Below, piece after piece: positions 4,938 through 40,787 of a stretch of 64,000 nt of DNA. Both the position numbers and the translations under genes were made by a program. The notes under the pieces are model-generated. The model was not told the origin of the DNA and did no database searches. It saw only the letters and a list, made by a program, of their open reading frames with translations. The stretch is taken from assembly GCF_024700885.2 (NCBI RefSeq), contig NZ_CP117016.1. One strand, written 5' to 3'. This DNA is from Escherichia coli (lineage in GTDB: Bacteria > Pseudomonadota > Gammaproteobacteria > Enterobacterales > Enterobacteriaceae). The first letter of the stretch is position 1. Each line of letters opens with the position of its first letter.

Positions 4938-7828
<2,891 letters not shown>

Positions 7829-25876: not shown

Positions 25877-26260
25877 ATGGGTAAAATAATAACATTGTCG
25901 TATACAAATAATTTTAAGCCTATTAGCGATAATAAATCTCAATCATTGCGAATACACTGTGTAAGTGTACGATTAAATAAAGAAGAGTTAGAGCTTCTCA
26001 ATGCAAGCCGTGGTGATAAACGCAAAGGTGAATGGCTTCGCATGGCATCACTTCAAAAGCTTCCTCCGACCATTCCTACAATCAATTTAGAAGTTTGGCA
26101 ATCATTGTCTGATATATCTCAAAAGCTAAACCGTCTAATAATCCACCTTGATACTAAAAGCAGTAATAGTGAACTGACGAAAACAGAGATCTTCGCTGTT
26201 AAAAAGCAGATTAAAGAGCTTCGCTCATGTCTTACAGGTTCTGATCCGTCCGTAAGGTAG
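25877..26260 (+). CDS. MobC-like mobilisation (relaxosome accessory) protein
   Basis: 127-aa ORF with the MobC-type core HCVSVRLNKEELELLNA...GEWLRM, immediately upstream of a relaxase gene. Confidence 0.65.
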   Translation: MGKIITLSYTNNFKPISDNKSQSLRIHCVSVRLNKEELELLNASRGDKRKGEWLRMASLQKLPPTIPTINLEVWQSLSDISQKLNRLIIHLDTKSSNSELTKTEIFAVKKQIKELRSCLTGSDPSVR

Positions 26261-26268
26261 TTATTCGC

Positions 26269-27450
26269 ATGAAAGGAATGCAGAAGATCAAAAGGGGTAA
26301 GAGCTTCTCAGGTGTGGTTCTCTATGTGTTAAAGCCAGGCTCACACCATAGAACCGTTCCAGAAGTAATTGGTGGCAACATGACAGGTGATTGCTCACAA
26401 GAGTTAATCGACGAATTTAACCTTACGAAAGAGCTTCGCTCAGATGTGGCAAAACCTGTTTGGCACAATTCACTTCGATTACCCCAGGGAGAATCTCTTA
26501 CCAACGAACAATGGAAACGAATTGCTGACGATTACATGAAGCGAATGGGGTTCGGTGATACACACCTCCGTTGCTATGTTCTTCATGATGATCAGGCTGG
26601 TCAGCACATACACATTATTGCAAGTCGCATAGATCTCAATGGCGGGAAGCTCTACTTGGGTAGGAACGAAAACCTCATCAGCACCCGCATAATCAGTGAA
26701 CTCGAATTCGCTCATGGTCTGACAGTGACCAAGACAGCCTCTTCAATTGCACCAAAGCAACCGAAGCGGAAGAGAATCTCTCGCAACGAACAGATGCTAT
26801 CAGAACGAACTGGTGTTCCCTGCCCCAAGAAGTCCCTTCAACAGATCATAGATAAAAGTTTGGCAGATACACCTGACCTTTTAACTTTTATCAAGAGGCT
26901 GGAAGAAGCAGAAGTAGGCTGGACGGCGAATGTCGCAAGCACAGGTAAAATGAACGGGTTCTCTTTCGAATACACAGGAATAGCTTTCAAAGCTTCCCAG
27001 TTAGCCAAGAGCTATTCATGGGCAAATCTTCAAAAGCAGCTTAACTACAACCCGGATCACTTAGAAGCTCTGCGAAAGGATATACAGACCAAGGAAGTTC
27101 CTGCTCCTGTTCCTGTTCCTGTTCCTGTTCCTGTTCCTGTTCCTGTTCCTGTTCCTGCAGAACCGATAGCAAGAACGGCCGCCCAGATCGAAAGCATAAG
27201 TGAAAAAATTGCCGAACTGGAACTACGACTCAAAGAAGACAGAAGAAACGAAATCGTAGAAAAGATTCTTCAAAAGAATGCAGCCAAACAGCAAAAGCAT
27301 CTCAGGCTCACCGGCTGGATTCCCTTTTTACAACGGCTCATAGAGCTTCTCAGAAAATATGGAAGGAGCATCCTCCACAAGGTTCCTACAAACTTCTTAG
27401 AAGTCTATTCAACCCATCATCTGAAACCTACAAGAAAAATTCGTTTATAG
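26269..27450 (+). CDS. Mobilisation relaxase (MobA/VirD2-like nuclease domain) with internal (PV)n linker
   Basis: 393-aa ORF with N-terminal Tyr region (GVVLYVLKPG) and HDDQAGQHIHII three-histidine motif typical of relaxases. Confidence 0.75.
   Translation: MKGMQKIKRGKSFSGVVLYVLKPGSHHRTVPEVIGGNMTGDCSQELIDEFNLTKELRSDVAKPVWHNSLRLPQGESLTNEQWKRIADDYMKRMGFGDTHLRCYVLHDDQAGQHIHIIASRIDLNGGKLYLGRNENLISTRIISELEFAHGLTVTKTASSIAPKQPKRKRISRNEQMLSERTGVPCPKKSLQQIIDKSLADTPDLLTFIKRLEEAEVGWTANVASTGKMNGFSFEYTGIAFKASQLAKSYSWANLQKQLNYNPDHLEALRKDIQTKEVPAPVPVPVPVPVPVPVPVPAEPIARTAAQIESISEKIAELELRLKEDRRNEIVEKILQKNAAKQQKHLRLTGWIPFLQRLIELLRKYGRSILHKVPTNFLEVYSTHHLKPTRKIRL
27100..27153 (+). repeat. In-frame hexanucleotide tandem repeat (CCTGTT)n, nine units with seven perfect, encoding a Pro-Val/Pro-Ala linker
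   Basis: CCTGCT-(CCTGTT)x7-CCTGCA read directly inside the relaxase ORF. Confidence 0.9.
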
Positions 27451-27702
27451 ACAGCTAGTTATAAACACCTTTCGTAACATAACTTAATTACCTAGTGATA
27501 AATTTGTGTTTAGTCAAGAAAATATTGATCGTTATTACAGATCGATATCAATATTATGATAGCCTAAACCTATCGTAACTTAGACATCGATCGGTACAAG
27601 TGATTTTACTAAAGATAATTATTCATCGAGAATCCCTGAAAAGAGCCTGATGATTTTTAAGCAATAGCAGTATCAGGAACCGATTGTAAAAATGGAGTTA
27701 AT

Positions 27703-27981
27703 ATGAATAACGAAACCATTAAGTGTCCGTTCTGCTTCAAAGAGAGCCAGTTTGGTGTCCGTGTTTGTACCGGCTGTCATTCAACCATCAAATATGGCGA
27801 AGTTTCACCTTGGTTATCTTTACTAATAGGATTTATTTTATTAGCCATTGCTTACATCATACTTTATATAAGTCAAAGTTTTTTAGTAGCTCTCGTTATT
27901 CTTTTAACATTAATGATTTCTACAAGATTGTATATTCGTAAAAAATTTGCACACAGAGCAGTTTTCACTCACCAACATTAA
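27703..27981 (+). CDS. Hypothetical zinc-ribbon membrane protein
   Basis: 92-aa ORF with CPFC...CTGC at the N-terminus followed by two hydrophobic helices. Confidence 0.45.
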   Translation: MNNETIKCPFCFKESQFGVRVCTGCHSTIKYGEVSPWLSLLIGFILLAIAYIILYISQSFLVALVILLTLMISTRLYIRKKFAHRAVFTHQH

Positions 27982-27999
27982 GAACAAAAGGGATTTAAC

Positions 28000-28314
28000 A
28001 TGAAAGCATATGCTATGCTAACAATCATTCTTTCTACTTTTCTATTAACTGCATGTAATAGTGAACCAAGTCAAGATGATATCTACAATGCATTCAAAAG
28101 TGTTGTAGATAAAACCAATGCCAGCATGAAAGCTTTTGATTCAAGAGTGTCAGAAAAAGACCTTTTAAAAATCGATTATGTAAAAAAAGTAAGCTGTTCG
28201 GAAGAAGCAAACAATGTTTACAACTGCATTGTCGATGCTTCTATTAGCAACAATAAACAGACGAAACCAATTAAATTAGTTAAAGCTGATGGTGTCTGGA
28301 AAGAAGTTCAGTAG
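28000..28314 (+). CDS. Hypothetical lipoprotein
   Basis: 104-aa ORF with signal peptide and lipobox (LLTAC) at the N-terminus. Confidence 0.5.
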   Translation: MKAYAMLTIILSTFLLTACNSEPSQDDIYNAFKSVVDKTNASMKAFDSRVSEKDLLKIDYVKKVSCSEEANNVYNCIVDASISNNKQTKPIKLVKADGVWKEVQ

Positions 28315-28366
28315 TAGCCTATATCAAGAAGTCTCTTTTAGCCCCTGCACAGGGGCTTTTTATTGC

Positions 28367-28801
28367 CTATAACCTGACGGCTCTTACGCGAACTTCATGG
28401 GTTAACTCTTTCTCGATTACTTTCATTTCATATTGTGCTCTGACAGTAGCATAGATTTCTTCTGCCATTTCTTGATTGCTATCGATATAGTTAACGAGAG
28501 AGTTTAGCTCCCTGATAACAGCTTCCTTATTGTTTAATCGTTGTAGTAGATTGCTTGTTAGGCTTTTGTATACAGAGCTAAACATTGCCATGACATTGTC
28601 TATGTTACGATTTGATTTGGAATAAATTTTTTTAGGATAGAAATATTTTAAATGGTATCCCACAAAAATTAAGTAAAGCTGATATGAAAAACTTTTATCA
28701 TGTGGCTGATATCGTTTTGATATGTATTTATCTACAATGATAACAAGCTGTTCTTCCAGTGTCATCACTGAATTATAATTGGTTTTGTTCATAAGTTGCA
28801 T
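28367..28801 (-). CDS. Hypothetical protein
   Basis: 144-aa ORF in AT-rich island DNA; no recognisable motif. Confidence 0.4.
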   Translation of the reverse strand: MQLMNKTNYNSVMTLEEQLVIIVDKYISKRYQPHDKSFSYQLYLIFVGYHLKYFYPKKIYSKSNRNIDNVMAMFSSVYKSLTSNLLQRLNNKEAVIRELNSLVNYIDSNQEMAEEIYATVRAQYEMKVIEKELTHEVRVRAVRL

Positions 28802-28894: not shown

Positions 28895-29308
28895 TTATTT
28901 TTTGTTTTTGGGAAAAATTTGATCTTCTCTAATACATTTACCATATGCAACCATTTGAAGATCTCTAACCATAAGTAGAAGCCTGTTATTTTCACTAACT
29001 AACCTCGAATTTTCTGTTTCTAATTTACTGATTTTATTCGAAGCATAGGCAAGACTTTGAGGACTTTTAATATGCTTAACAGTTTCACCTTTAGTTCTCT
29101 TTTTCTGCTGATATGCATAAGCTATTACTGTATGTCTTGAAAGAGCCTGTCTCGTTGGTTTTTTACCGAAATGATCCTCTACGGAATCACAAAGACTGAC
29201 CCAAGTTAAATCGCCTTCCCAGCCATTTATTTTATCGAGAACGAATTCAATATCTTCCTTGTTAAACTTTTTACTCATTATGTTCTCCTCTAAGATAATA
29301 ACTAACAA
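28895..29308 (-). CDS. Small coiled-coil protein co-operonic with the recombinase trio (real start possibly MSKKFNKED at 29278)
   Basis: 137-aa ORF overlapping the stop of the upstream recombinase; C-terminal heptad-like KISKLETENSRLVSENNRLLLMVRDLQ. Confidence 0.5.
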   Translation of the reverse strand: MLVIILEENIMSKKFNKEDIEFVLDKINGWEGDLTWVSLCDSVEDHFGKKPTRQALSRHTVIAYAYQQKKRTKGETVKHIKSPQSLAYASNKISKLETENSRLVSENNRLLLMVRDLQMVAYGKCIREDQIFPKNKK

Positions 29309-30917
29309 TATGATTTATAATTTTACTAACTTCTTGGATTTCCTTTTCAACATAATTCGCTTTCTGTGAATTATATTGGCTTCTGTATAAATTATTCTTT
29401 TCTTCAAGCGTTTGTAAATGGTCTTTAATTTTGCAAATAATATCATCCTTACTCCCTCCACCTAAATCAGAAATCATTTCATCAGCAAATAATACTCTTC
29501 GTTCGTTTTGTCGCAACTCCTCCCAAGTTCGGTTATCATACACATTATTTTGTTCAACATTTTTCCTCCCTGACCAAAAAGCTATTTCTATATCAGAGAG
29601 CATAGCTCTTTGAGCAAGAGTGTTTAAAAGATGTCTTGGCTGATGACTACTAAAAATCTCTTTCATACCATTGGGTTGTAATGTTTTATGTCGTTGAAAA
29701 AAATTTAAGGTAGTTTCTTTTTCTGACCTTTTTTTAAAATCAGCAATAAACATCTTTTTATTTGCGGGTAAGACACAGAATAAATCAATTCCTTTCTTTA
29801 AATGTAATTGATCTTTATTTAGGATTAACAATCTATTACTAAGGTTTATAGATTTTGAAAATTCATCCCAAGATTTTGTTTTATCGCTATAATTAAAAAC
29901 TTCATTCCAAAATTCTTTTGCACTAAGAATCCCACTCTCTACCCTCATTAATATATTTTTAGTTTTAACATTGAAGCAGTCCATACAGTTTAGATTTAAA
30001 AGCTTATACAACTTTGTATGAAAATATCGTCCATTCTCATCAGTCTCTAAACTCTTATAAAACTCCAATTCTCCTTTTTCTCGTAGGGTAGCTATGCACC
30101 TTGCCGTTTGTGATAATACCCTTAATCTTTTAATGGCTAATTTTGCTATTGAATGCATATTCCTTGGAATCCACTTTATACTTTCACCATAGCCTTTTGC
30201 ACTATGATAACGAATGCCATAGGAGCCTTTCCCCTCTATGTCGTTCCCTTCAACTTCACAATCCACCTCAAGACTCAGGACTTCTGATATTCGTGTTGGA
30301 GCACAAAGAAGCAGTGCGATGATAGATGTTGTAAATATATCTCTTTGGCTTTTATCATTAGAACTAAAAACCCTACCAACAAGATCTATGACTTCCTCTT
30401 CTGGTAACTTATTTTTAATTTCTTTTTGCCCTATAAGATCTCTTACAGCTTTATTTCTAATTATTCTAAGCCTGGAGTTAAACTTACTTAATTTTGGATT
30501 TATTATGTTATTTATAGCTAACACTTCTAAAATATTCTTTAATGCCTTTTCAATAGCCCCCGCACGACTATTAGAATATTTCTTTTCTACTTGGAATAAA
30601 ATGTTGTTGATAACCTCAGAATTAATATTAACAATATGTGGTTCTACATTCAAAGTGAAGAATGAACTTTCCATAATTTTTATGACCGCCAAATAAAGTA
30701 ATGATTTACTGAGATTAGGGAAACACTCTCTATATATAATAACCTTTGATAATTGTTGAAAATGCGCTCCCATGTCTTTATCTTTTTTTATATGATTGTT
30801 ATTTTTAAATGAAACCCCTCTACCCCATGACAAATCATCCCAATTTATAATATTTTCTTTTTTTGCCTGTATCCTTACTTCATTAGCTAAAACATCATAA
30901 TTATTATAATGACTCAT
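29271..30917 (-). CDS. Tyrosine recombinase family protein (third of three tandem paralogues)
   Basis: 548-aa ORF; candidate catalytic residues in order: R in CAPTRISEVLSL, HQPRHLL (HxxR), W in FWSGRK, Y in NNVYDNR. Confidence 0.6.
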   Translation of the reverse strand: MSHYNNYDVLANEVRIQAKKENIINWDDLSWGRGVSFKNNNHIKKDKDMGAHFQQLSKVIIYRECFPNLSKSLLYLAVIKIMESSFFTLNVEPHIVNINSEVINNILFQVEKKYSNSRAGAIEKALKNILEVLAINNIINPKLSKFNSRLRIIRNKAVRDLIGQKEIKNKLPEEEVIDLVGRVFSSNDKSQRDIFTTSIIALLLCAPTRISEVLSLEVDCEVEGNDIEGKGSYGIRYHSAKGYGESIKWIPRNMHSIAKLAIKRLRVLSQTARCIATLREKGELEFYKSLETDENGRYFHTKLYKLLNLNCMDCFNVKTKNILMRVESGILSAKEFWNEVFNYSDKTKSWDEFSKSINLSNRLLILNKDQLHLKKGIDLFCVLPANKKMFIADFKKRSEKETTLNFFQRHKTLQPNGMKEIFSSHQPRHLLNTLAQRAMLSDIEIAFWSGRKNVEQNNVYDNRTWEELRQNERRVLFADEMISDLGGGSKDDIICKIKDHLQTLEEKNNLYRSQYNSQKANYVEKEIQEVSKIINHIVSYYLRGEHNE

Positions 30918-32274
30918 TATTCATGCCCTCCTTGTTGAGCAATTCGATTATTTTATTTATTTTACATTCTAACATTGTGAATAAGTCCGTTAGGATTTCA
31001 AAGTCTGCTTGCTTCGTATAATCTGCTATTAATACTCCAGTAAGCTTTTTTATGATTATCAAATCGTCAACCAATCTAAGGGTAATGTCGTCACTGTTTT
31101 TTAAAAATGAGGAAATATAAGGGCTTACTAACTCATTTATTGCCTGATCTATTCTGAATGAAAACTCTTCATTGTTTTTTGCATACGACAATACTGATTT
31201 CAAATTGCTATGATCTAAAGCTTTTGCTATCGTACCTAATCCATAACCTTTAAGTGCAAGCCTTGTGGCTAATGTAACCCTAAGTTGCCGAGAGTTAATC
31301 TTTTTATTTTTATCTTTACTTACCCTTTGGCAAATGGCCTGAACCCTACCGGTTATCCTCTTAGAACTCATATGCAAATTGAAGAAGTTATTTTCATATA
31401 ATTTATCAAGTTTGTAAGTCGAGTTAAAAAAACAAGGATCAATAAAGAGGGGTAAATTGTTTAATTCATCTTCACTTAATATATCGCCTACCTCACCCTG
31501 CACAAAAACCTTAACTACTGATTTAAGCTCTGATAGTGAATTGAACAAATTATCCCCTATACGCAATTCGGAAAAATCAGTTCTGAAACTATCTCCTTGT
31601 TTTAATCTGGGTATGTTTAAAAAATTACCATTTTCTTTGATATAAAGATCCTTCCTTTTTAATTGAGCGATCTGCATTGGTCTTCGCCCCGAATATATCA
31701 TCAGCATGACTAAAAGGTAGTCATTCATAGTCATATTTCCATCATTGTATTCCTTTGTCATGCCCCCAATTAGGTTCTTCAGTTCGTATTCAGATAATGG
31801 TCTTAAAGACTCTTTTCGCTCAATATATGCAGTTGTCTTGTTGGGTTTAGTTACTTTCCATTTTAAAATCAAATCCAGCATTTCTTGATCTATGAATTCA
31901 TTATTTAACTCATAATGTTTTATTATAAAATACTTTAAACTTTCAACATGTGTATAGCTTATTTTATAATATGCATTGTAAAATCTATTTAGTAATCCAT
32001 AGTCAAATTTGTCCAACTTCCCTTGATTAAAAACAACGAGTTTTTTTATAGAAAAGAAAAACTTTCTCGCATAAGCTGAACTAAAATTCACAGCAGTATA
32101 GGCAAGGGTCTCTTTTATAGATGCTAATAAGATAGCATTAATGTTTCTTTCAAAATATGAGAAATTTAATTTAACATCTTTGCTGAGAAACCAAACACTA
32201 TCATGTAAACTAAAATTATTTCTGCTGTCTTTTGCCTTTAATACCAAGTAATTTTCTAACATTAATGCTTTCAT
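30904..32274 (-). CDS. Tyrosine recombinase-like protein with degenerate catalytic motifs (second of three)
   Basis: 456-aa ORF; SGRRPMQIAQL (box I Arg), SRQLRVTLATR, LDHSNLKSVLSYAKN; overlaps both neighbours. Confidence 0.5.
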   Translation of the reverse strand: MKALMLENYLVLKAKDSRNNFSLHDSVWFLSKDVKLNFSYFERNINAILLASIKETLAYTAVNFSSAYARKFFFSIKKLVVFNQGKLDKFDYGLLNRFYNAYYKISYTHVESLKYFIIKHYELNNEFIDQEMLDLILKWKVTKPNKTTAYIERKESLRPLSEYELKNLIGGMTKEYNDGNMTMNDYLLVMLMIYSGRRPMQIAQLKRKDLYIKENGNFLNIPRLKQGDSFRTDFSELRIGDNLFNSLSELKSVVKVFVQGEVGDILSEDELNNLPLFIDPCFFNSTYKLDKLYENNFFNLHMSSKRITGRVQAICQRVSKDKNKKINSRQLRVTLATRLALKGYGLGTIAKALDHSNLKSVLSYAKNNEEFSFRIDQAINELVSPYISSFLKNSDDITLRLVDDLIIIKKLTGVLIADYTKQADFEILTDLFTMLECKINKIIELLNKEGMNNESL

Positions 32275-33508
32275 CTATTTCTCCTTCAATTTTATTTATG
32301 ATTTCTTGATTCACTAAATCTGCCTCTTCAAAAGCTTTTAAAGTTTCTTCACTAATATAACGATTGTTATAAATCAAAGCCGTTTTGGAGTTCATTTTCC
32401 ACCCCATTCTTACGCATCTGATTCTATCTAATTGGGTCAATCTATATTGATCAGTGACTCCTATGTATTTTAAACTGTAAATATAGTTCCATGTGTGCCG
32501 TAGACAATGCCCTGTGAAATTTTGAAAAGATACTCCATTGAATTCAATTCTACTTATTTGCTTAATTACTTTATGATATGCACTTATTGACAGAGGAAAT
32601 CCTTCCGTAGGACCAGATTTTTGAGTAATAAATAAGTAATTATGATTTAAGCTTTTCGAATAGAAAGACCTATCATTGTCTATATATGAAGAGATTTGCA
32701 TAGACAATTTTTTGCTAATATTTAATTCTCGTTCAAATGTTTTAACAAGTGGTTGAAAAACTCTTGGGTCTGCTGGATCATTTATTCTTTTACAAACTTT
32801 CAGATATCTTTTTTCCTTGTTAAAATCAGTAATTTTCAAGTTCAATAGCTCACCCCCTCGCATTCCAGTTTCCTGAAGAATGAGGATTATGAGTTGATTT
32901 CTTTTACGGCAACTGATATCAACAAATGGATTGTATTGGCTTTCAGGTTCTATACATTGCAATAGAATGTCTAAGCTTTCTTTTTCTAATGATTTAAAAT
33001 CATTATTCAAATAGAATTGAGAGTTTAATTTTGGTTTATGTTTACGAAAAAGCAAACTAACACTTTTTGATATAATGTTTGTCTCATATATTGTAGTGCT
33101 AAAATATGATTCATAAATCCAAGAAATGTAGGAACTAATTACTGTCAATCTATAATGAAGATTTTCTTGATTGATCTTTTTATACTCTTTTATATCTATA
33201 ACTTTTTGTTTTTTATTTTTAACTCTAAGTTGTTCTGACAATGAATAGATTTCAGTAAAGCTAAGGAAGGTCTTAGATCTAATTCTTTCGATAAGATTTA
33301 TATTTGATTCTATTAGATAATTTTCAAAAGCAATCAAAGTGTAAGCATTTCTCAATACTGTATTAAATGACTTATTCTTTTGCTTATATAGCAAACTAAG
33401 ATATATATTTTGATAATACAATGGCAAACCGTTTTTTGAATCCAAAATCATACAAAATCTGCTTCCATCACTCGCCATTAACTTCTTTACTGAATATCTC
33501 CTATTCAT
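32216..33508 (-). CDS. Tyrosine recombinase family protein (first of three; start set at MNRRYSVKKL after a GGGGTGA RBS, ORF extends to 33547)
   Basis: GMRGGELLNL (box I Arg), HCLRHTW (HxxR), GWKMNS, ALIYNNRY (Tyr) in canonical order. Confidence 0.65.
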   Translation of the reverse strand: MNRRYSVKKLMASDGSRFCMILDSKNGLPLYYQNIYLSLLYKQKNKSFNTVLRNAYTLIAFENYLIESNINLIERIRSKTFLSFTEIYSLSEQLRVKNKKQKVIDIKEYKKINQENLHYRLTVISSYISWIYESYFSTTIYETNIISKSVSLLFRKHKPKLNSQFYLNNDFKSLEKESLDILLQCIEPESQYNPFVDISCRKRNQLIILILQETGMRGGELLNLKITDFNKEKRYLKVCKRINDPADPRVFQPLVKTFERELNISKKLSMQISSYIDNDRSFYSKSLNHNYLFITQKSGPTEGFPLSISAYHKVIKQISRIEFNGVSFQNFTGHCLRHTWNYIYSLKYIGVTDQYRLTQLDRIRCVRMGWKMNSKTALIYNNRYISEETLKAFEEADLVNQEIINKIEGEIDESINVRKLLGIKGKRQQK

Positions 33509-33626
33509 TATCACCCCATAATTTATTTTTTTATTTATAGGTAACATAATTTTTTAGCAAGTTACAAATTTATTTGCTATTATTTTCAATGACCTTATTA
33601 CTCGCGACTCTAATAAAGAATCGGCC

Positions 33627-33680: not shown

Positions 33681-33757
33681 GCGGTAGTAGTTCAGTTGGT
33701 CAGAATATTCCCCTGTCACGGGAATGGTCGTGGGTTCGAGTCCCATCTATCGCGCCA
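33681..33757 (+). tRNA. tRNA-Asp (anticodon GUC), foreign island-borne copy
   Basis: Manual cloverleaf: acceptor GCGGTAG/CTATCGC, D stem GTTC/GAAT, anticodon stem TTCCC/GGGAA with loop CUGUCAC, T loop TTCGAGT, 3' GCCA; differs from my recollection of the host tRNA-Asp. Confidence 0.8.
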
Positions 33758-33761
33758 GAAA

Positions 33762-33836
33762 GGGCAATTAACTCATTGGTAGAGTGTATCTCTTACAAAG
33801 ATATGGCGGTTGGTTCGATTCCAACATTGCCCACCA
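33762..33836 (+). tRNA. tRNA-Val (anticodon UAC), foreign island-borne copy
   Basis: Manual cloverleaf: acceptor GGGCAAT/ATTGCCC, D stem ACTC/GAGT, anticodon stem TATCT/AGATA with loop CUUACAA, T stem GTTGG/CCAAC, 3' ACCA. Confidence 0.8.
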
Positions 33837-34104: not shown

Positions 34105-34680
34105 ATGGTACGAAAAATCTCTACATTTTTAAAGATAATAGGAGTTATAGGTTCTTTATGCGGGATTATTGCGACAGTATTCACAATCTATGCGTACTAC
34201 AACCCGACCTCCCCTTCTACTCAGAGATATGACAGTATTGTAGGAAGCTGGCTATCTGATTACTCTTACACCGTAAAAGGGAATACCGTTAGGGTTAATG
34301 GAAAAACGACCTTCTTCTCTAATGGAAAATACAACTTTCATGGCAGTATCTCTATTGACTCTAATGCTCCAGGTGACCATATATTAATAGATTATCTTTC
34401 TGATGGTGCTGGTGATTGGGAACTATATGATAATGAGTTAATTACATCATTAAATAGCCTAAAAACAAAACCTATGAAGCTGGCTTTAAATAACGAAGAT
34501 CTTGATCCACTGAAAATAGAGGTGATAAACAATAAAAAGTTACCAACTATTGAGGAGAATATGGCTGATGGGAAAAACCAATCCTATAAAATAATAAAAT
34601 CTTCAAAAAGCCAGTTAACATTGGAGGTTATTAACGAAATCGGAAGCAATTTCAACTTTACTATGCAAAAAACAAAATAG
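34105..34680 (+). CDS. Hypothetical membrane-anchored or secreted protein
   Basis: 191-aa ORF with an N-terminal hydrophobic segment followed by a Ser/Thr/Asn-rich domain. Confidence 0.45.
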   Translation: MVRKISTFLKIIGVIGSLCGIIATVFTIYAYYNPTSPSTQRYDSIVGSWLSDYSYTVKGNTVRVNGKTTFFSNGKYNFHGSISIDSNAPGDHILIDYLSDGAGDWELYDNELITSLNSLKTKPMKLALNNEDLDPLKIEVINNKKLPTIEENMADGKNQSYKIIKSSKSQLTLEVINEIGSNFNFTMQKTK

Positions 34681-34711
34681 AAATGATGGCGATCTGAAAT
34701 CGCCATCATTT
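34681..34711. terminator. Perfect 13-bp stem hairpin, bidirectional terminator between the convergent 191-aa ORF and the helicase gene
   Basis: AAATGATGGCGAT-CTGAA-ATCGCCATCATTT with A/T runs on both sides, filling the gap between two stop codons. Confidence 0.75.
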
Positions 34712-34712
34712 T

Positions 34713-36560
34713 TCAACCTTGATAATCTTCAGCCTCGATACCACAATAAGTTATCATGTTTGTTATTAACGGTATATCATTACAATTCTGCTTGAAAGAC
34801 CTGCCATAACTATTGTTTCTTATTTTACAACGAGTCATTAATACTTCTTCAATGGCTCTTGAAAATGCCACAAAGACTGTTTTTTGATTTTCTATTTGCT
34901 CTTCTTCTTTACCAAAATAGGCACCAGGTTCAAGCCCCACAACGATGACCTTCCTGAACTCTAACCCTTTACTTTTATGGATGGTCATAAGAGGTATTGT
35001 TTTATTGCCAAGTAATAAATCAATGGCTTCTGATGTGTTTTCTTTTACATCTAACTTATCGAGGTGGCGAGAAAGTAATTCTATGCTATATTCTAAAACA
35101 TTCCCACTCATATACTGCGGAAAGTAAGACTTTATTTTATCGACACCAAATATACTTAATAATGAATATAAATAATCGACAATTTCTCCTTTAATTACCC
35201 GATGAGATTTAATAAACTGGCTAAGTTCTTTTTCTAACCGTGTAACATCACCTCTTTTACTTACTCCTCTTATATTACATAGAAGCTCCATTGTAGTGGC
35301 CCAGCTTTCTATGGATTTTCTATTACAGACAAACATTAGCATTTGTAAAAGTAACTGTACTACAGCTTCATTTAAAAGATCCTGATACTCGTTCTCAAGG
35401 CGACATTGTATTTTCAAATATTGCAATGCTGAAATGATATCGTCTGTATATTGTTTAGCCGGGTTTCTTAGCAGTATACATATATCTCTTTCATTTACTC
35501 CTTCAGCAATCCATTGCTGGATACATAATGCTATATATGCCCCTTCAATACTACTTTCGTCAAATTGTAGTAACTTAGCTGAACCTTCATTTTCAATCAA
35601 CATCATATCAGGCTTTATATCAGCATGATTCATGAAAGCTTCCATCATGCGTTGATAATTTATGAGGTTTTTTAATGACCTTCTATTGCTAACTAATTCA
35701 TTAGATTGTTCGATTCCAAAATCTTTTTTAAACACATCAAAAGCATTGTGCATTGCACCTGCCCAACCCATTATTCTTTGTTTTGTATCACCGACTGCTG
35801 TTATTTTTATTTTTTTACCCAAGAAAATGCTCTTAAAAATCTCATATTGCCTATATGTTGTGTCCTGAAACTCATCGATAAAAGCATAGTCATATGTTGA
35901 ATTTATAGCATTAGATAAATATTGATTCCTACTAATAATATAATTAGCAAGAAAATTAATCATCTTGAATGAAATCCTTGATTTTGGTTTTAATAAGTGT
36001 AACCACACAAACCGTCTTATCCTGCCATCAACAGAATGTTCTAATGCTTTATTATAAGGAGTTACTATATAATTCTCTTCAAAATTATAAGGTTGTAATT
36101 TATTTAATTCTTCAGATGTTAAACCTTCAAAGCCTACGGCCTCTCTTTTAATTTCTTCAACTAAATCATTATTATTTGGAAAGATTATTTCATAGTCATT
36201 TGATGGACGATAAGATTCCGGAATAGTGCTTTTAAAGCGATCAACAATACTTTTACAGAATGCATCAAATGTTGTTGATTCAAATTTGTGTCTATATTTT
36301 GTATCAAGCCGTGAGTTTACTCTATCTTGAAGATTTTTGGCCGCATCTTTTTTAAAGGATAATGCAATTATTTTTTTATTGCTGCATTTTCCTGTCTCAA
36401 TCAAGAAACAAGCTTTCTGAGCCAATAATTCTGTTTTACCTGCACCGGGACCAGCAAGAACGAGATTATGCCCTGTACTATTTCGAATTACCCTCATAGC
36501 CTCGTCTTCTACTTCTTGGATATCCTTTAAAACCCAATCGGCATCTTTAATAGTCGGCAT
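34713..36560 (-). CDS. gajB: UvrD/PcrA-like superfamily 1 helicase, Gabija GajB-like
   Basis: 615-aa ORF with Walker A (LAGPGAGKTELL), DEFQDTT motif and C-terminal HKSKGLEF motif; start codon shares one nucleotide with the upstream ATPase stop. Confidence 0.65.
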   Translation of the reverse strand: MPTIKDADWVLKDIQEVEDEAMRVIRNSTGHNLVLAGPGAGKTELLAQKACFLIETGKCSNKKIIALSFKKDAAKNLQDRVNSRLDTKYRHKFESTTFDAFCKSIVDRFKSTIPESYRPSNDYEIIFPNNNDLVEEIKREAVGFEGLTSEELNKLQPYNFEENYIVTPYNKALEHSVDGRIRRFVWLHLLKPKSRISFKMINFLANYIISRNQYLSNAINSTYDYAFIDEFQDTTYRQYEIFKSIFLGKKIKITAVGDTKQRIMGWAGAMHNAFDVFKKDFGIEQSNELVSNRRSLKNLINYQRMMEAFMNHADIKPDMMLIENEGSAKLLQFDESSIEGAYIALCIQQWIAEGVNERDICILLRNPAKQYTDDIISALQYLKIQCRLENEYQDLLNEAVVQLLLQMLMFVCNRKSIESWATTMELLCNIRGVSKRGDVTRLEKELSQFIKSHRVIKGEIVDYLYSLLSIFGVDKIKSYFPQYMSGNVLEYSIELLSRHLDKLDVKENTSEAIDLLLGNKTIPLMTIHKSKGLEFRKVIVVGLEPGAYFGKEEEQIENQKTVFVAFSRAIEEVLMTRCKIRNNSYGRSFKQNCNDIPLITNMITYCGIEAEDYQG

Positions 36561-38548
36561 TAAAGTAATCCTCTTACTGTTTCGATAATTTCATTAAGAA
36601 CTTCAGGACTATCATCTCTTAACTTATCGTCTTCCATTTTTGATAGAACATAATTGTGCGATAATGGTTTACCTCTTCCTAAAAATAGGTAACGATACCA
36701 AAAATATTTTTCATAATCATCGAACTCACTAATATCAATATCTTTCTCTTCTTTTTTCAAAACTGCAGCAATTGCCGATTTAACTTTATTATCATATTCA
36801 TGATCGTCATCTTTTGGCAATCTTGGCCCACCATTTTTGGGAACAAATGTCTTATAATCCTCAAAGAATTTATTAAGCATTAGCCAATCTAAATCGTAGG
36901 GGTAAGAAAAATAAACATTATAATCTTTTAGACAATTAATCCATGCCGATTCATTATCTTGATCCTCATCCCATGTATGCATTTTTTCAAGCTCTTCATC
37001 ACTTAAAGTTCCTGAAGTAATACTTAACAATTCATTTTTATCTGCACCTATAGATATTAATTGTTTGACTGCATATTTAATTCTTCCCCAACCACCACCT
37101 CCTCCTCTCTTGAAATCATAGTCGAGAAGAGTCACATGTGGAATTGAAAGCTCATTGAGTAACTTCCAAAAATGATTAACATATCGCCCTCCTAATGGAG
37201 CAAATGTTATCAATGAAGTGTCAAGCTCTATACCATTTACTTGAGCTATTTTAGGTATTACTATTTCTTCGCTATCACCTTCACCAAGTATTACAACTTT
37301 TGCAAAATAAATTTCTGGATATGCCTTCACTGCTTCTTTTACATAAGTGAAAGTATCAACATTGTCTCCATCGTCTTCATCTTCGCTTGGTAATAATATT
37401 GGTTTGACAACAGTATTTTTATTATCATGTAGACGAAAATACCTTATATTTTCTGGTTCTACTCTATTGAGTAATGAAGGTGCGTGTGTTGTTAAAACAA
37501 CCTGTGCTCGATCATTCTCAGATATATCTTCACATAGTTTAACTATTCTTCCTAAATATTGGGGTGAAAGATGATTTTCTGGTTCTTCGATTAATATTAT
37601 CGTTAAATTTGGAGGATCTAATGCTTCTACTGATATTGATAATTCATTTTCTCCTGAATTAATGATCTCATCTTCAATATCAAATGCAGATTTGACTAAC
37701 GAAAGATAAAACAATGACTTCATACCATCACTCAATCTTTCAGTTGGTAATGGCTGAGTCACCGGAGTAGGCATAAATACAGTATCTATATGCTTTAATA
37801 CATCTTCTATTCCATTCATTACTGGCTGAATTTTAAGCTGTTCAAAATACCCTCCGCTAAAAAGAGTTTTCCAATTTCTGCCCAATGAAGATGTTATTGT
37901 CTGAACCCCAATTTCTTCTTGGAACTGGTTTCCGATTGATTCTGCAACCTCATCAACCGTTGAACTCATCTGTTCAGACCATTCAACTGCATTTATCAAA
38001 CGGTGCATGATGGTTCCGGCTGTTTGCTTCAGTTGTTGAGCAGGATCGCGATAAGCAGGGACATAATGAACATGGATTTTTGATCTTTCATATGCTGTAA
38101 TATTTTTTTCATATTCTCCTATTTCCCATACTAAATCACTATCTATATCCCCTTCTGCAAGATTAGTTTTTGTCCATTTAGCTTTTAATTTTGCTATACA
38201 GTATGGGATCTGGTCTGCTTCATTTGAGACCAAATGCTTAAAGAAATCAGCGACTGAATCGTCCTCACCATCTTGCAGATCTGCAAATTCAAATTTTACA
38301 CGAACTGATAATTCTCTTTCATCTTGAGTATCGATTTCATCTCCAGGAGGAACATAAAAATCATCAACTTGAACAATTCTATCGGAGCTTTTGACACCAA
38401 ACATCCTTGTCAATGCGAGGAGAACAGCCGTCTTACCTGTTCCATTCCCTCCAATTAAGCTGGTGAATGAATTTATATTTATAGTTTGCCCTACATTATC
38501 AAAGCTCTTAAAACCTTTGATCTCCATTTGTGTAATTTTCATTATCAC
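36560..38548 (-). CDS. gajA: OLD-family ATPase-TOPRIM nuclease, Gabija GajA-like
   Basis: 662-aa ORF with ABC-type Walker A (LIGGNGTGKTAVLL), Walker B and H-loop region (IILIEEPENHLSP) and a C-terminal TOPRIM-like VVILGEGDSEE. Confidence 0.65.
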   Translation of the reverse strand: MIMKITQMEIKGFKSFDNVGQTININSFTSLIGGNGTGKTAVLLALTRMFGVKSSDRIVQVDDFYVPPGDEIDTQDERELSVRVKFEFADLQDGEDDSVADFFKHLVSNEADQIPYCIAKLKAKWTKTNLAEGDIDSDLVWEIGEYEKNITAYERSKIHVHYVPAYRDPAQQLKQTAGTIMHRLINAVEWSEQMSSTVDEVAESIGNQFQEEIGVQTITSSLGRNWKTLFSGGYFEQLKIQPVMNGIEDVLKHIDTVFMPTPVTQPLPTERLSDGMKSLFYLSLVKSAFDIEDEIINSGENELSISVEALDPPNLTIILIEEPENHLSPQYLGRIVKLCEDISENDRAQVVLTTHAPSLLNRVEPENIRYFRLHDNKNTVVKPILLPSEDEDDGDNVDTFTYVKEAVKAYPEIYFAKVVILGEGDSEEIVIPKIAQVNGIELDTSLITFAPLGGRYVNHFWKLLNELSIPHVTLLDYDFKRGGGGGWGRIKYAVKQLISIGADKNELLSITSGTLSDEELEKMHTWDEDQDNESAWINCLKDYNVYFSYPYDLDWLMLNKFFEDYKTFVPKNGGPRLPKDDDHEYDNKVKSAIAAVLKKEEKDIDISEFDDYEKYFWYRYLFLGRGKPLSHNYVLSKMEDDKLRDDSPEVLNEIIETVRGLL

Positions 38549-39195
38549 CTCAATTGCTGTTTTAAAAAATTATAATCACTAATTATTTCTGCGTTTGTAA
38601 TGATTTCTTGTGAGCACAGCTTAAAACATTCTAAAAATATATTTTTATTATCGTTATGTTCCCAATGTTTTTTCAAAGCTTCTTCAATTGAAATCCAAAT
38701 AACTTGAAAATCGTTATTAGATATTTGGCTTGTTAAAACTGTTTCTTCCACACAAAGTATATGCCCTAAGATGACATCATCGTATATGTCAGTATCTGAA
38801 TCTCTAACTCCTAACCTTTTTATTTTCCTTTTTTGGATGATTTTATTTTTAACAATAAAAGGATGTTCTTCTATAAAATCGGTCAATGATGTAAAAGCCA
38901 AGCCACGAACCTGAGCACCATGCATTGAACTATTTACTTTATGGATATCTCTCCAAACTCGCAGATCACCTAATACATAGAGAACCCGCTGATTTCTCGC
39001 TTTCGTATCTTCTGCTTGGTATTGGATATAAGGTGGCCCTCCCCCATTTTGTCTATATCGGGCAAGGGTTTTGATGCTTATGCCAAGAAAGACAGAAGCA
39101 AGCTCACTATTTACAGTGGCAGAATCAGGCATTTGACCAAATAGTTTCCATACCTCTGAATACTCCCGCAAAACTTCCACCACACTCATCTTCAC
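38545..39195 (-). CDS. Uncharacterised protein with an N-terminal HTH-like motif, translationally coupled between the integrase and the ATPase (possible true start at ATG 39189)
   Basis: 216-aa ORF; ELASVFLGISIKTLARYRQNGGGPP resembles excisionase/AlpA-type HTH; its start overlaps the integrase stop and its stop overlaps the ATPase start (ATGA). Confidence 0.5.
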   Translation of the reverse strand: MKMSVVEVLREYSEVWKLFGQMPDSATVNSELASVFLGISIKTLARYRQNGGGPPYIQYQAEDTKARNQRVLYVLGDLRVWRDIHKVNSSMHGAQVRGLAFTSLTDFIEEHPFIVKNKIIQKRKIKRLGVRDSDTDIYDDVILGHILCVEETVLTSQISNNDFQVIWISIEEALKKHWEHNDNKNIFLECFKLCSQEIITNAEIISDYNFLKQQLR

Positions 39196-40655
39196 TCCCT
39201 CGTTTCAGGTAATGGAGGATACTTAGCCGAAGCAAGTAACACATTGTATAATTTAGGAGCAGTCATAAGCATATGCAACTCAATCCTTTGTAATGCTTCA
39301 AAAATCCGTTCTTGATCAGGTTCTGCATACCTTTCTGTTGGATCTGTTGTATTTCTGTGATTGAGCAGTCTCTTAACGACGGCATATGAAACAAGTTCTT
39401 CAGCAACCCTACCAAATGTCCTTCGTAGATCATGCATACCAAGCTTCAGGATTCCCGCCTCTTGGCAGATATATTCCCTTAGACTTTTACTATCGGAATA
39501 GTGACCAACTTTACTTCGAGAAGAACGGGCCGGGAAAACCCACTTCTGTTTGTCCTTCTGGGTTACCGTATCGTTTACTATGTCTCTTCTATCTTCCAAA
39601 ATTCTTTTGACAGCATCACAAATCGGAAGCTCGTGATCGTTTCGATTCTTAGTGTCGTAAAAACGGATAGTTCTGTTACTCAGGTCAACATAGCTTGTCG
39701 TTTTAGCTTCTTCCTTTGTAAGAGACTCTCGCCAACACAGAGAAGCTGTTTCTTCCTTACGAGCACCTAAGAGAACGGTAAGTAGCAGATAATCGCACCC
39801 AAGCCGGTTGAAGCTTCTCTTGTTGAACAATGCAGTCAAGAACCGACCAAGTGTATCCTTTGGTGATAAGGGGTTTCTGACACCTTTTGCCCGATAACTA
39901 TCCTCAAGCTCAGAACGTGTCCTAAACTTTTTCTGTACCTTTAAGATACTGAAAGGGTTGTAAGATAGAGAAGGTTGTCGTTGCTGGGTCTGAGCATTCC
40001 CAGCTTCAATCTCTATTGCGTGTTTTACAGCAACATTCGCCCACCTAAAGGTCTGTTCCGCTGCTGTTCTGGCTCTTGAAGCAATCTCATCAAACTTCCT
40101 AAGAATTTCATTACCAGTAAGATCTTTAACTCGCAAACCAGCCCACTCAGAAAGCCTGTTTTCTGCTTTATCTAATACAGCCAAGGTGTTGGGTTTAGCT
40201 GGTTTCGCTCTACCCAGCAGATGCTGGCGGTATTGTGCAAACACTTCACTGATAGTGAGTTCAGAAGCATCGGACTCCCGTTTTATTTTGTTAGGGTTCC
40301 TTTTGGTCAACTTCATGGTTTGAACTAAATTGCGAGCAACCTCGCGGGCTTGATCGATGTTAGCGAAATCAGAGACATTGCCAATTGTAGACCTGATAAC
40401 CTCAGATGGGGATTTTCCCCCTGTCTTAGGGCGATTGCCAGGAGAAGAGACTCGTCGCTGAACGATATAGGTCTTTTTCGTTGCACTGATTTTGACACCA
40501 AAACCAACGGGTGAATCCCGGTGATTATCAGTGATAAGATACGGTTTTCGCTCTGGATTGGGTAAGTAGACTACTCTGCCTTGCGGATCAAGGCTCGGTT
40601 TCACGTCGATAGATAACTTATTGATTATAATCGACTGATTGAGTGTCATTTTCAT
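39192..40655 (-). CDS. Tyrosine integrase, P4-like family with N-terminal arm-binding domain (ORF extends to 40763; start set at MKMTLNQ)
   Basis: Box I LLGARKEETASL, HDLRRTFG (HxLR) and C-terminal NHRNTTDPTERY; lies at the island border next to the target gene. Confidence 0.8.
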   Translation of the reverse strand: MKMTLNQSIIINKLSIDVKPSLDPQGRVVYLPNPERKPYLITDNHRDSPVGFGVKISATKKTYIVQRRVSSPGNRPKTGGKSPSEVIRSTIGNVSDFANIDQAREVARNLVQTMKLTKRNPNKIKRESDASELTISEVFAQYRQHLLGRAKPAKPNTLAVLDKAENRLSEWAGLRVKDLTGNEILRKFDEIASRARTAAEQTFRWANVAVKHAIEIEAGNAQTQQRQPSLSYNPFSILKVQKKFRTRSELEDSYRAKGVRNPLSPKDTLGRFLTALFNKRSFNRLGCDYLLLTVLLGARKEETASLCWRESLTKEEAKTTSYVDLSNRTIRFYDTKNRNDHELPICDAVKRILEDRRDIVNDTVTQKDKQKWVFPARSSRSKVGHYSDSKSLREYICQEAGILKLGMHDLRRTFGRVAEELVSYAVVKRLLNHRNTTDPTERYAEPDQERIFEALQRIELHMLMTAPKLYNVLLASAKYPPLPETRE

Positions 40656-40660
40656 CGATG

Positions 40661-40716
40661 TATACCAGTGGTTCAAGTGTGTATACCAGATAGTAGCTAG
40701 AATACTTCTGGTATAC
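40661..40716. promoter_or_regulatory. Three copies of TATACCAG, including a 10-bp inverted repeat GTATACCAGA...TCTGGTATAC, between the integrase start and mutS
   Basis: Read directly; candidate integrase operator or arm sites, overlapping a possible -10 (TAGAAT) for the rewired mutS. Confidence 0.5.
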
Positions 40717-40787
40717 AAATTTATGGGTTTATGTGAGTTTAAAGGGGTATCACTTGGGGCCACATAAGTACTCAGAAGACTTTAAAA

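Follow-up and report, generated by a model that had tools for sequence, protein, structure and literature searches.

A zinc-ribbon membrane protein and a lipoprotein beside the relaxase of a GInt-like island in Escherichia coli: a reduced envelope cassette with a possible exclusion-type function

We analyzed a 64,000-nucleotide stretch of an Escherichia coli chromosome (contig NZ_CP117016.1 of RefSeq assembly GCF_024700885.2; hereafter, the window) with respect to two adjacent small genes, which encode a 92-aa protein with two cysteine knuckles and two hydrophobic helices (hereafter Zn) and a 104-aa lipoprotein precursor (hereafter Lip). Comparison of related islands shows that these genes are the reduced, two-gene form of a three-gene envelope cassette which belongs to the relaxase-linked backbone, not to the cargo, of a GInt-like integrative mobilizable element (IME). 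Judging from the sequence comparisons described below, we rate the cassette as a putative mobile-element envelope or exclusion-type module built from unrecognized protein families, and exclusion of conjugative transfer at the envelope is the function that we tentatively favor.

The cassette was delineated by scanning, with a profile for each protein, four E. coli islands (L002-L004 and L007; compared loci are denoted by L numbers) and 14 species-dereplicated loci that were retrieved with a narrower Lip alignment and come from Citrobacter, Kluyvera, Dickeya, Pluralibacter, Phytobacter, Superficieibacter and others. The order of genes, namely a MobC-like protein, the relaxase, Zn, a BamE-like lipoprotein of 128-132 aa, Lip and, in convergent orientation, a helical protein denoted h144, is held in 13 of the 13 species-level loci with a visible upstream flank as well as in the four E. 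coli islands. Conserved co-occurrence, the absence of which had been named beforehand as grounds for rejecting the pair, is thus retained throughout, and the proposal of the preliminary description that the pair lies on a mobile element is borne out by its location within a mobilizable island. What has to be amended is the notion of a gene pair: the two genes do co-occur, but the usual unit consists of three genes, with the BamE-like lipoprotein in between. This middle gene is missing only from the window island and from the Dickeya locus L010, so that the 18-bp junction between Zn and Lip represents a clean loss. The label 'BamE-like' is based on motif resemblance and on the Phyre2 results published for SEN1984 (PMC10655114); with Pfam PF04355 (BamE / SmpA_OmlA), the middle protein obtains E = 0.049 and 13.9 bits, which is below the cut-off of 23.2 and leaves it outside that family.

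The cargo next to the cassette varies from locus to locus and includes Gabija, Qat, HerA, TIR/caspase with kinases, Kiwa, Hxs and resistance genes, whereas the cassette remains constant. Furthermore, in L017 and L018 the mobilization genes, the cassette and h144 are joined to a pair of genes for a 216-aa protein and a 523-aa integrase without any gin genes, and therefore the cassette travels with the relaxase and not with one particular integration system. Pairwise identities of the relaxase, the BamE-like lipoprotein, Lip and h144 co-vary across the loci (Spearman 0.68-0.83), whereas those of Zn do not co-vary with them (rho 0.12-0.48, with 0.29 for Lip and 0.44 for the relaxase), and one Lip type is found with two very different Zn alleles. 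A sequence-specific complex of Zn and Lip is therefore not indicated, and the pattern fits allele swapping at the Zn position. The protein h144, for which no Pfam or PDB match was detected, is always located beside Lip and co-varies most tightly with it (rho 0.83), and may belong to the same module. Lip is encoded in 111 of the 5,426 complete E. coli genomes (~2%), always in the chromosome and at several sites, and some Zn homologue is present in ~9% of complete E. coli genomes.

Both genes are real and evolve under purifying selection. The two open reading frames (ORFs) described previously, 18 bases apart from the stop codon of Zn to the start codon of Lip, have the same coordinates in the ORF list and match the RefSeq coding sequences, the ends of which are identical in strain MLI114 (100% identity), where the products are named hypothetical proteins (WP_071995492.1 for Zn and WP_032230118.1 for Lip). 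Sequences resembling a Shine-Dalgarno site precede both genes (GGAG for Zn and AAGGGA for Lip). The pair is more than a chance occurrence because it is embedded in stop-codon-rich DNA with a GC content of ~32-37%, because each protein has more than 100 homologous clusters across Enterobacterales at E <= 1e-3 (103 for Zn and 319 for Lip), and because pairwise ratios of nonsynonymous to synonymous substitution rates (dN/dS), calculated for 18 orthologous loci, have medians of 0.20 (Zn) and 0.13 (Lip). A GC-rich hairpin (28340-28357) with a T-run on the 3' side of Lip is predicted to act as an intrinsic terminator that ends the transcription unit of Zn and Lip opposite the convergent gene for h144; six terminator-like sites were found across the region compared to 0.6 expected from shuffled sequences. 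The promoter scan detected no consensus sigma-70 promoter upstream of the Zn gene.

The Zn sequence starts with MNNETIK-CPFC and continues through a CTGC knuckle into two hydrophobic stretches and a basic tail. The knuckles are C8-P-F-C11 and C22-T-G-C25, and the positions C8, P9, F10, C11, G18, C22, C25, Y31, G32 and F88 are invariant in 28 homologues. The AlphaFold2 model of Zn, with a mean predicted local distance difference test score (pLDDT) of 82, contains ribbon strands at residues 5-7, 14-16 and 28-31, that is, around both knuckles, as in a C4 zinc ribbon with two CxxC knuckles on beta-hairpins. These are followed by helices 36-57 and 60-81, separated by a two-residue turn, and by a C-terminal strand (86-89) with a conserved R-A-V-F motif. 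Sequence and model agree with the initial proposal of a CxxC...CxxC ribbon and two hydrophobic helices, and we describe Zn as a predicted N-terminal C4 zinc ribbon followed by a transmembrane (TM) hairpin and a basic tail. Pfam and NCBIfam zinc-ribbon models score under their cut-offs on Zn, searches of Pfam, NCBIfam, PADLOC and PDB sequences yielded no match above threshold, and structure searches with the model retrieved generic zinc ribbons only. Zn is probably an inner membrane protein with both termini in the cytoplasm and a periplasmic turn of ~2 residues because, under the positive-inside rule, the tail (RLYIRKKFAHR) is basic and the turn (SQSF) is uncharged; the conserved parts of the protein, the ribbon and the C-terminal strand, would therefore be cytoplasmic. 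The TM hairpin is hypervariable, with 19-57% identity compared to 56-91% for the ribbon.

The N-terminus of Lip, MKAYAMLTIILSTFLLTA followed by the cysteine, is a canonical lipobox preceded by a K-rich n-region and a hydrophobic core; the lipobox itself, MKAYAMLTIILSTFLL-T-A-C19, i.e. LTA before C19, fits the pattern [LVI][ASTVI][GAS]C. The lipoprotein call made in the preliminary description is upheld by the combination of this motif with conservation, given that C19 is invariant in an alignment of 43 homologues down to ~25% identity. P23, C76 and W100 are invariant in the same alignment, and L16, S24, K63 and C66 nearly so. The family signature consists of C-x-x-E-P-S-x-x-D-I, located immediately after the lipid-modified cysteine, and VKK-x-x-C ... 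Y-x-C ... dGW at the end, and the mature domain comprises ~85 aa with the conserved Cys66/Cys76 pair. In E. coli, lipoproteins with a residue other than Asp at position +2 are sorted to the outer membrane by the Lol system; Lip carries Asn20 at +2 and Ser21 at +3 and is predicted to follow this route. In the confident AlphaFold2 model of Lip (pLDDT 88.8), a long helix (25-46) packs on a four-stranded antiparallel sheet, which is a fold of the generic cystatin/NTF2-like kind. Lip is not covered by any Pfam or NCBIfam family, and PADLOC and PDB sequence searches gave no match; the name 'cell wall-binding protein' that NCBI attaches to Lip is unsupported by any scan that we ran. A literature search by the protein accessions of the pair found nothing.

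Beyond the islands closely related to the one in the window, Zn belongs to a wider family. Approximately 400 E. coli genomes match the window DNA only over the 77 nt that encode the ribbon. In ROD21-like (EARL) islands, which were identified as such because NCBI names the partner protein 'SEN1982 family lipoprotein', a 91-aa Zn homologue is encoded 10 bp after a lipoprotein of 176-183 aa in 5 of the 5 loci examined; the E. coli copies match the Zn profile with E values of 1e-43 to 2e-46. One variable cargo gene separates this Zn homologue from the MobQ relaxase, and the islands also carry genes for TraD, type-4 pilin and the PilV shufflon. In uropathogenic E. coli (UPEC) 536, the genes next to the lipoprotein-Zn pair encode a BamE-like homologue with a frameshift and a membrane protein with DUF4755. 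A more distant Zn homologue (28-31% identity) is encoded 4-5 bp after a lipoprotein of 96-99 aa in Klebsiella, Citrobacter and Enterobacter plasmids of 30-45 kb, which are typed as non-mobilizable and carry a lone DotA/TraY gene together with type-4 pilin genes. A lipoprotein gene at a distance of 4-18 bp thus accompanies the Zn family in three kinds of conjugation-dependent element, and the neighborhood analysis of homologues proposed at the outset shows other lipoproteins beside distant Zn homologues in two kinds of mobile element besides the one in the window. Homology among the three partner lipoproteins was considered and rejected given that hhalign aligns their signal peptides only. Searches with tblastn of 50,697 phage records for Zn and Lip, and of 72,556 plasmids for Lip, found none.

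Several observations touch on the composition of these loci. In a metagenomic variant of the GInt/IME kind (L027, 4388-5333; L028, 1276-2221), a DUF4755 protein with two TM helices replaces Zn and the BamE-like lipoprotein in front of a Lip homologue with 35% identity, and a DUF4755 homologue also lies beside the lipoprotein-Zn pair in ROD21-like islands (L005, 7557-8030), which suggests that the range of exchangeable envelope genes is wider. Next to another Lip homologue (40% identity), locus L008 contains a 98-aa ORF (6587-6883, minus strand) with CPFC...CRSC and two TM helices; this ORF is not detectably homologous to Zn (profile E = 1.6), and its similar architecture may have been recruited independently or be due to chance. 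The plasmids of loci L024-L026 (Klebsiella plasmid NZ_CP124876.1) and L025 encode H-NS and an LPD7 protein in addition to the lipoprotein-Zn pair. Such plasmids have the appearance of helper-dependent elements from which an IncI-type (MPF-I) apparatus would receive substitute components.

The island that harbors the pair is inserted between ygbA and mutS, and the GC content falls from ~54% to ~31% from roughly 23 kb to 40.8 kb of the window (Table 1). From left to right, it consists of several hypothetical genes, the MobC/NikA-like and relaxase genes, Zn and Lip, h144, a four-gene block on the minus strand, tRNA-Asp and tRNA-Val (which may be cargo or the attachment site of a nested element), a gene for a 191-aa protein, Gabija gajB/gajA (identified by PADLOC), a gene for a 216-aa protein and a 523-aa integrase gene that abuts mutS. 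No type IV secretion system (T4SS) gene is annotated among the 17 coding sequences of the island, which thus combines a relaxase and annotated tyrosine recombinases without T4SS genes, as IMEs do, and is therefore a helper-dependent mobilizable element. The architecture and protein sizes of the minus-strand block (443, 456, 548 and 137 aa) fit a GInt-like IME: GInts, or Tn6571-family islands, have a published ginABCD/ginDCBA architecture, with two tyrosine recombinases, a protein of recombinase fold without clear catalytic motifs and a small fourth protein encoded in the same orientation at one end of the cargo, and are known in E. coli as defense-carrying elements (PMC5385486, PMC10121019), and the 548-aa GinC-like protein has no Pfam match, as is the case for GinC (PMC5385486). 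The likeness to GInts lies in the gin-like operon at one side of the cargo, and that to IMEs in a relaxase without a T4SS. GInts are described in the literature as putatively non-mobilizable, with no known route of transfer and no mention of a relaxase or an envelope cassette, whereas the window island has both, and its relaxase module would, in a GInt, contradict the published view. The region had no megablast match to plasmids. The mutS-proximal part of the island (34105-40763, from the gene for the 191-aa protein to the integrase gene) hints that the island may be composite or nested because L017 and L018 (10536-12656) join the genes for the 216-aa protein and the integrase to the mobilization genes and the cassette without gin genes. 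In the relaxase gene, a short tandem repeat at ~27100-27165 encodes a (Pro-Val)n run that differs in length in the L032 homologue and may be a variable linker.

Table 1. Features of the island region around the Zn and Lip genes (positions in the window)
Feature	Coordinates	Strand	Basis or remark
MobC/NikA-like protein gene (127 aa)	25877-26260	+	Upstream mobilization gene
MOBP-type relaxase gene (393 aa)	26269-27450	+	Pfam Relaxase PF03432, E = 5e-27; NCBIfam TraI/MobA(P), 1.8e-18
Conserved non-coding nested inverted repeat and flank	27505..27640	.	Spacer between relaxase stop and Zn start; 8-locus alignment
Zn gene, predicted zinc-ribbon protein with two TM helices (92 aa, ATG)	27703..27981	+	ORF list and RefSeq coding sequence
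Lip gene, lipoprotein precursor (104 aa, ATG)	28000..28314	+	ORF list and RefSeq coding sequence
Intrinsic-terminator-like hairpin, AGCCCCTG-CACA-GGGGCT then T-run	28340..28366	+	Terminator scan, sequence
h144 gene, helical protein (144 aa), convergent to Lip	28367..28801	-	Synteny
ginDCBA-like operon: GinD-like (137 aa), GinC-like (548 aa), tyrosine recombinases (456 and 443 aa)	28895..33547	-	ORFs, RefSeq
tRNA-Asp(GTC) and tRNA-Val(TAC), just upstream of the ginA-like gene	33681-33836		RefSeq also annotates both

Within the 252 bp that separate the relaxase gene from Zn, a non-coding block of ~125 bp surpasses the flanking genes in conservation. The block has the layout [ACAGATCGAT]-N11-[TGATAG]-N7-9-[CTATCA]-N11-12-[ATCGATCGGT], is followed by a conserved 3' flank, CAAG(C/T)(A/G)ATTTTACTAAAG, and includes three GATC sites (GATC/ATCGAT palindromes); the arms of its inverted repeat I1 are located at 27536-27562 and 27570-27596. 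An exact 26-mer of the block is shared by 15 loci whose coding regions differ by a synonymous divergence (dS) above 1, and a diverged copy is found upstream of the DUF4755 gene in L027. An origin of transfer (oriT) is usually located upstream of mobC and built as an inverted repeat with a conserved 3' flank; here, the sequence in front of mobC shows far weaker conservation than the block. The search for an oriT motif shared with the MOBP plasmids pWES-1 and pHNGDW697-2 yielded only an 11-mer upstream of mobC, which is not decisive, and no Rfam family matched the region. The small plasmid OX345050, considered as an independent test of the block, was uninformative, since it is a linear fragment (3.5 kb) of an element of this very kind. 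The block may be an oriT, with the cassette then being the first part of the island to reach a new host, or it may be an operator of the cassette, possibly a Dam-sensitive one.

Among the possible functions, exclusion of conjugative transfer at the envelope appears the most plausible, and we assign it a probability of roughly 35%; entry exclusion was one of two roles, next to envelope modification, that the preliminary description had suggested. Under this scenario, the cassette would form an exclusion-type barrier where conjugation meets the host envelope. From its anchor in the outer membrane, Lip would disturb mating-pair contact or the periplasmic part of the incoming apparatus, similarly to surface exclusion, whereas the Zn ribbon and C-terminal strand would block or abort the entry of DNA or relaxase at the cytoplasmic face, similarly to entry exclusion; specificity would come from the variable TM hairpin and from the exchange of lipoprotein partners. 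The benefit to the island would consist in fewer redundant or competing acquisitions and in a bias in the conjugative elements that the host receives. We favor this scenario because the arrangement of an inner membrane protein and an outer membrane lipoprotein matches that in the F plasmid, where traS (inner membrane) adjoins traT (outer membrane lipoprotein), and because the hypervariable hairpin and the swappable partners look like diversification of specificity; likewise, the shuffling of Zn alleles against a co-varying module resembles the diversification of exclusion groups. Also in favor are the selection acting on both genes, the backbone position of the cassette beside changing defense cargo, the recurrence of Zn-lipoprotein pairs in three kinds of conjugation-dependent element, and the lack of both proteins in the phage records and of PADLOC matches. 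Orphan exclusion lipoproteins carried by IMEs, together with ColE1 mbeD, provide the precedent: Sfx, an orphan surface-exclusion outer membrane lipoprotein of IncC plasmids and some IMEs, excludes helper-mediated transfer, and mbeD mildly inhibits transfer between homologous ColE1 plasmids, its target being unidentified (PMC11493245).

Several lines of evidence weigh against an exclusion function. Neither protein resembles a known exclusion protein in sequence or in a specific fold, and Pfam and NCBIfam scans of Zn and Lip detected none of the TraT, TraS, TrbK, Eex and ExcA families even at E <= 1 or 0.1; no Eex protein is known to carry a zinc ribbon. Given that the island lacks a T4SS, any target must reside on a helper element. 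Co-evolution of the Zn alleles with Lip is not seen, and the two may therefore act independently or not as a complex; Zn also exposes almost nothing to the periplasm. The replacement of Zn and the BamE-like gene by the DUF4755 gene in L027 and L028 likewise weighs against exclusion. Finally, some distant relatives of Lip are found in ordinary or housekeeping chromosomal contexts, and therefore the Lip fold is not dedicated to mobile elements.

The main competing scenario, which we consider possible although doubtful, is that the cassette is an accessory on the donor side, with the Zn ribbon anchoring the relaxosome or relaxase at the inner membrane or on a coupling protein of the helper, and with Lip and the BamE-like lipoprotein remodeling or stabilizing the envelope apparatus or pilus of the helper, in the way that SGI1 replaces T4SS subunits. 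The position of the cassette, directly 3' of the relaxase in all GInt/IME loci and near the 3' side of mobQ in the ROD21-like islands, is compatible with such a role, as are the predicted cytoplasmic location of the conserved parts of Zn and the genes for PilV, type-4 pilin, TraD and DotA/TraY in other Zn-bearing elements; if the upstream block were the oriT, the cassette would lie right at the transfer origin. What argues for exclusion over this scenario is that small plasmids with related MOBP relaxases are mobilized by mobC and the relaxase only, without these genes. In addition, the Zn alleles do not follow the relaxase clade (compare L012 and L023 with L003 and L007). Lip resembles VirB8 no more closely than it resembles cystatins and numerous other NTF2-like proteins, the similarity being a generic one at the fold level with 4-19% identity. 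VirB8 itself is a bitopic protein with an NTF2-like periplasmic domain of ~140 aa, encoded in a T4SS operon, whereas Lip is a short, lipid-anchored lipoprotein with an 85-aa domain and is encoded outside such an operon; thus, Lip as a VirB8-like T4SS component was rejected.

It is unlikely that the cassette mediates superinfection exclusion of phages, such that Lip would mask or inactivate an outer membrane receptor and the Zn hairpin would block genome injection. Small inner membrane hairpins and small outer membrane lipoproteins are the classical architecture of such systems: Cor and Llp act on outer membrane receptors, and Imm and HK97 gp15 block injection at the inner membrane. The presence of defense genes in the islands (Gabija here; Qat, HerA, Kiwa or TIR in the relatives) is also in line with this function. 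Set against these points are the absence of both genes from phage records, the usual home of such genes, the lack of a PADLOC match, PHROG matches that are weak and cover the ribbon or the signal peptide only, the invariant position of the cassette next to variable defense cargo, and the predicted cytoplasmic location of the conserved parts of Zn.

Quite unlikely, too, is a role in host interaction or general envelope fitness that is unrelated to DNA transfer, because it leaves unexplained the tight linkage to the relaxase across unrelated islands. This possibility is suggested by the attenuation of SEN1982 transposon mutants in mouse organ colonization (as cited in PMC10655114 and PMC6968874) and by the distant Lip relatives in housekeeping contexts; yet no homology of SEN1982 to Lip was detected outside the signal peptide, and Enterobacterales from plant, environmental and commensal settings all include carriers of the cassette. 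We consider it very unlikely that the pair is an addiction or immunity module, with Zn as a holin-like membrane toxin that is kept in check and stabilizes the island, or the lipoproteins as orphan immunity proteins against toxins that act in the periplasm, such as type VI secretion system (T6SS) effectors or colicins. The size and two-TM topology of Zn do resemble those of small membrane toxins and class II holins, and periplasmic lipoproteins with small alpha/beta folds are common as immunity proteins, but there is no cognate toxin, effector or antitoxin nearby, and the conserved zinc ribbon and C-terminal strand are atypical of pore-forming toxins. The weak match of the ROD21-type lipoprotein to the NCBIfam model 'putative T6SS immunity periplasmic lipoprotein' (E = 0.0016, far below the cut-off) spans the signal peptide region only (residues 3-45). 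A lysis cassette of holin and spanin was rejected since the PHROG spanin match is to the signal peptide only and there is neither an endolysin nor a phage homologue.

To judge from these scans, the pair falls outside every known exclusion, defense or T4SS protein family. Helper-dependent islands (IMEs, GInts and ROD21-like islands) carry much of the defense, virulence and resistance cargo of Enterobacterales, the way in which they interact with helper plasmids is poorly understood, and a case of exclusion by mobilizable elements, that of Sfx, was documented only recently. A conserved, uncharacterized envelope cassette adjacent to the relaxase in two unrelated island families is a concrete candidate for a factor of this interaction; moreover, enterobacterial GInt-like islands, a kind that has been described as non-mobilizable, carry a complete relaxase module and a strongly conserved candidate oriT or operator. 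More speculatively, and with considerable doubt on our part, Zn and its interchangeable partners (Lip, the SEN1982-type, 99-aa plasmid-type and BamE-like lipoproteins, and DUF4755) might constitute an unrecognized module that controls conjugative traffic and is shared by unrelated helper-dependent elements, namely GInt/IMEs, ROD21-like islands and TraY/pilin plasmids; in its most novel form, this would be a class of zinc-ribbon exclusion systems acting from the cytoplasmic face, with the upstream repeat as the oriT. If the cassette merely encodes a pair of fitness lipoproteins, the result is an ordinary one.

Compared with known exclusion systems, the pair is similar to TraS/TraT of the F plasmid in that a small polytopic inner membrane protein is encoded beside an outer membrane lipoprotein in a conjugation-related element, and to Eex of SXT, the specificity determinants of which are cytoplasmic, in the predicted location of the conserved parts of Zn. 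TraS/TraT, Eex of SXT/R391 and TrbK of IncP differ from the pair in being encoded inside T4SS operons and in targeting the TraG or TraN of their own element, whereas the window island has no T4SS; in addition, TraT has ~244 aa and is oligomeric, whereas the Lip domain, with 85 aa, is of monomer size. Sfx shares with Lip the status of an outer membrane lipoprotein on integrative mobilizable elements without a cognate T4SS. It differs in size (286 aa), in being encoded adjacent to traN, in targeting TraN of IncC-like plasmids, in having no described Zn-type partner, and in being plasmid-borne, whereas Lip had no match in the plasmids searched.

The closest real relatives of the cassette are encoded in ROD21, where SEN1980 (MobQ), SEN1981a (a membrane protein), SEN1982 (a lipoprotein) and SEN1984 (a BamE-like lipoprotein) are all uncharacterized (PMC10655114). 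By gene order and annotation, SEN1981a of Salmonella Enteritidis appears to be a true homologue of Zn; SEN1981a, SEN1982 and SEN1984 are as uncharacterized as the cassette itself, so that no function can be transferred from them. The ROD21 arrangement differs from that in the window in the inverted order of the lipoprotein and Zn, in the partner lipoprotein of 176-183 aa, which is not detectably homologous to Lip, and in the relaxase, which is MobQ and not MOBP. The likeness of the two arrangements consists in a membrane protein located beside a lipoprotein and a relaxase, with a BamE-like homologue of the middle gene of the cassette nearby.

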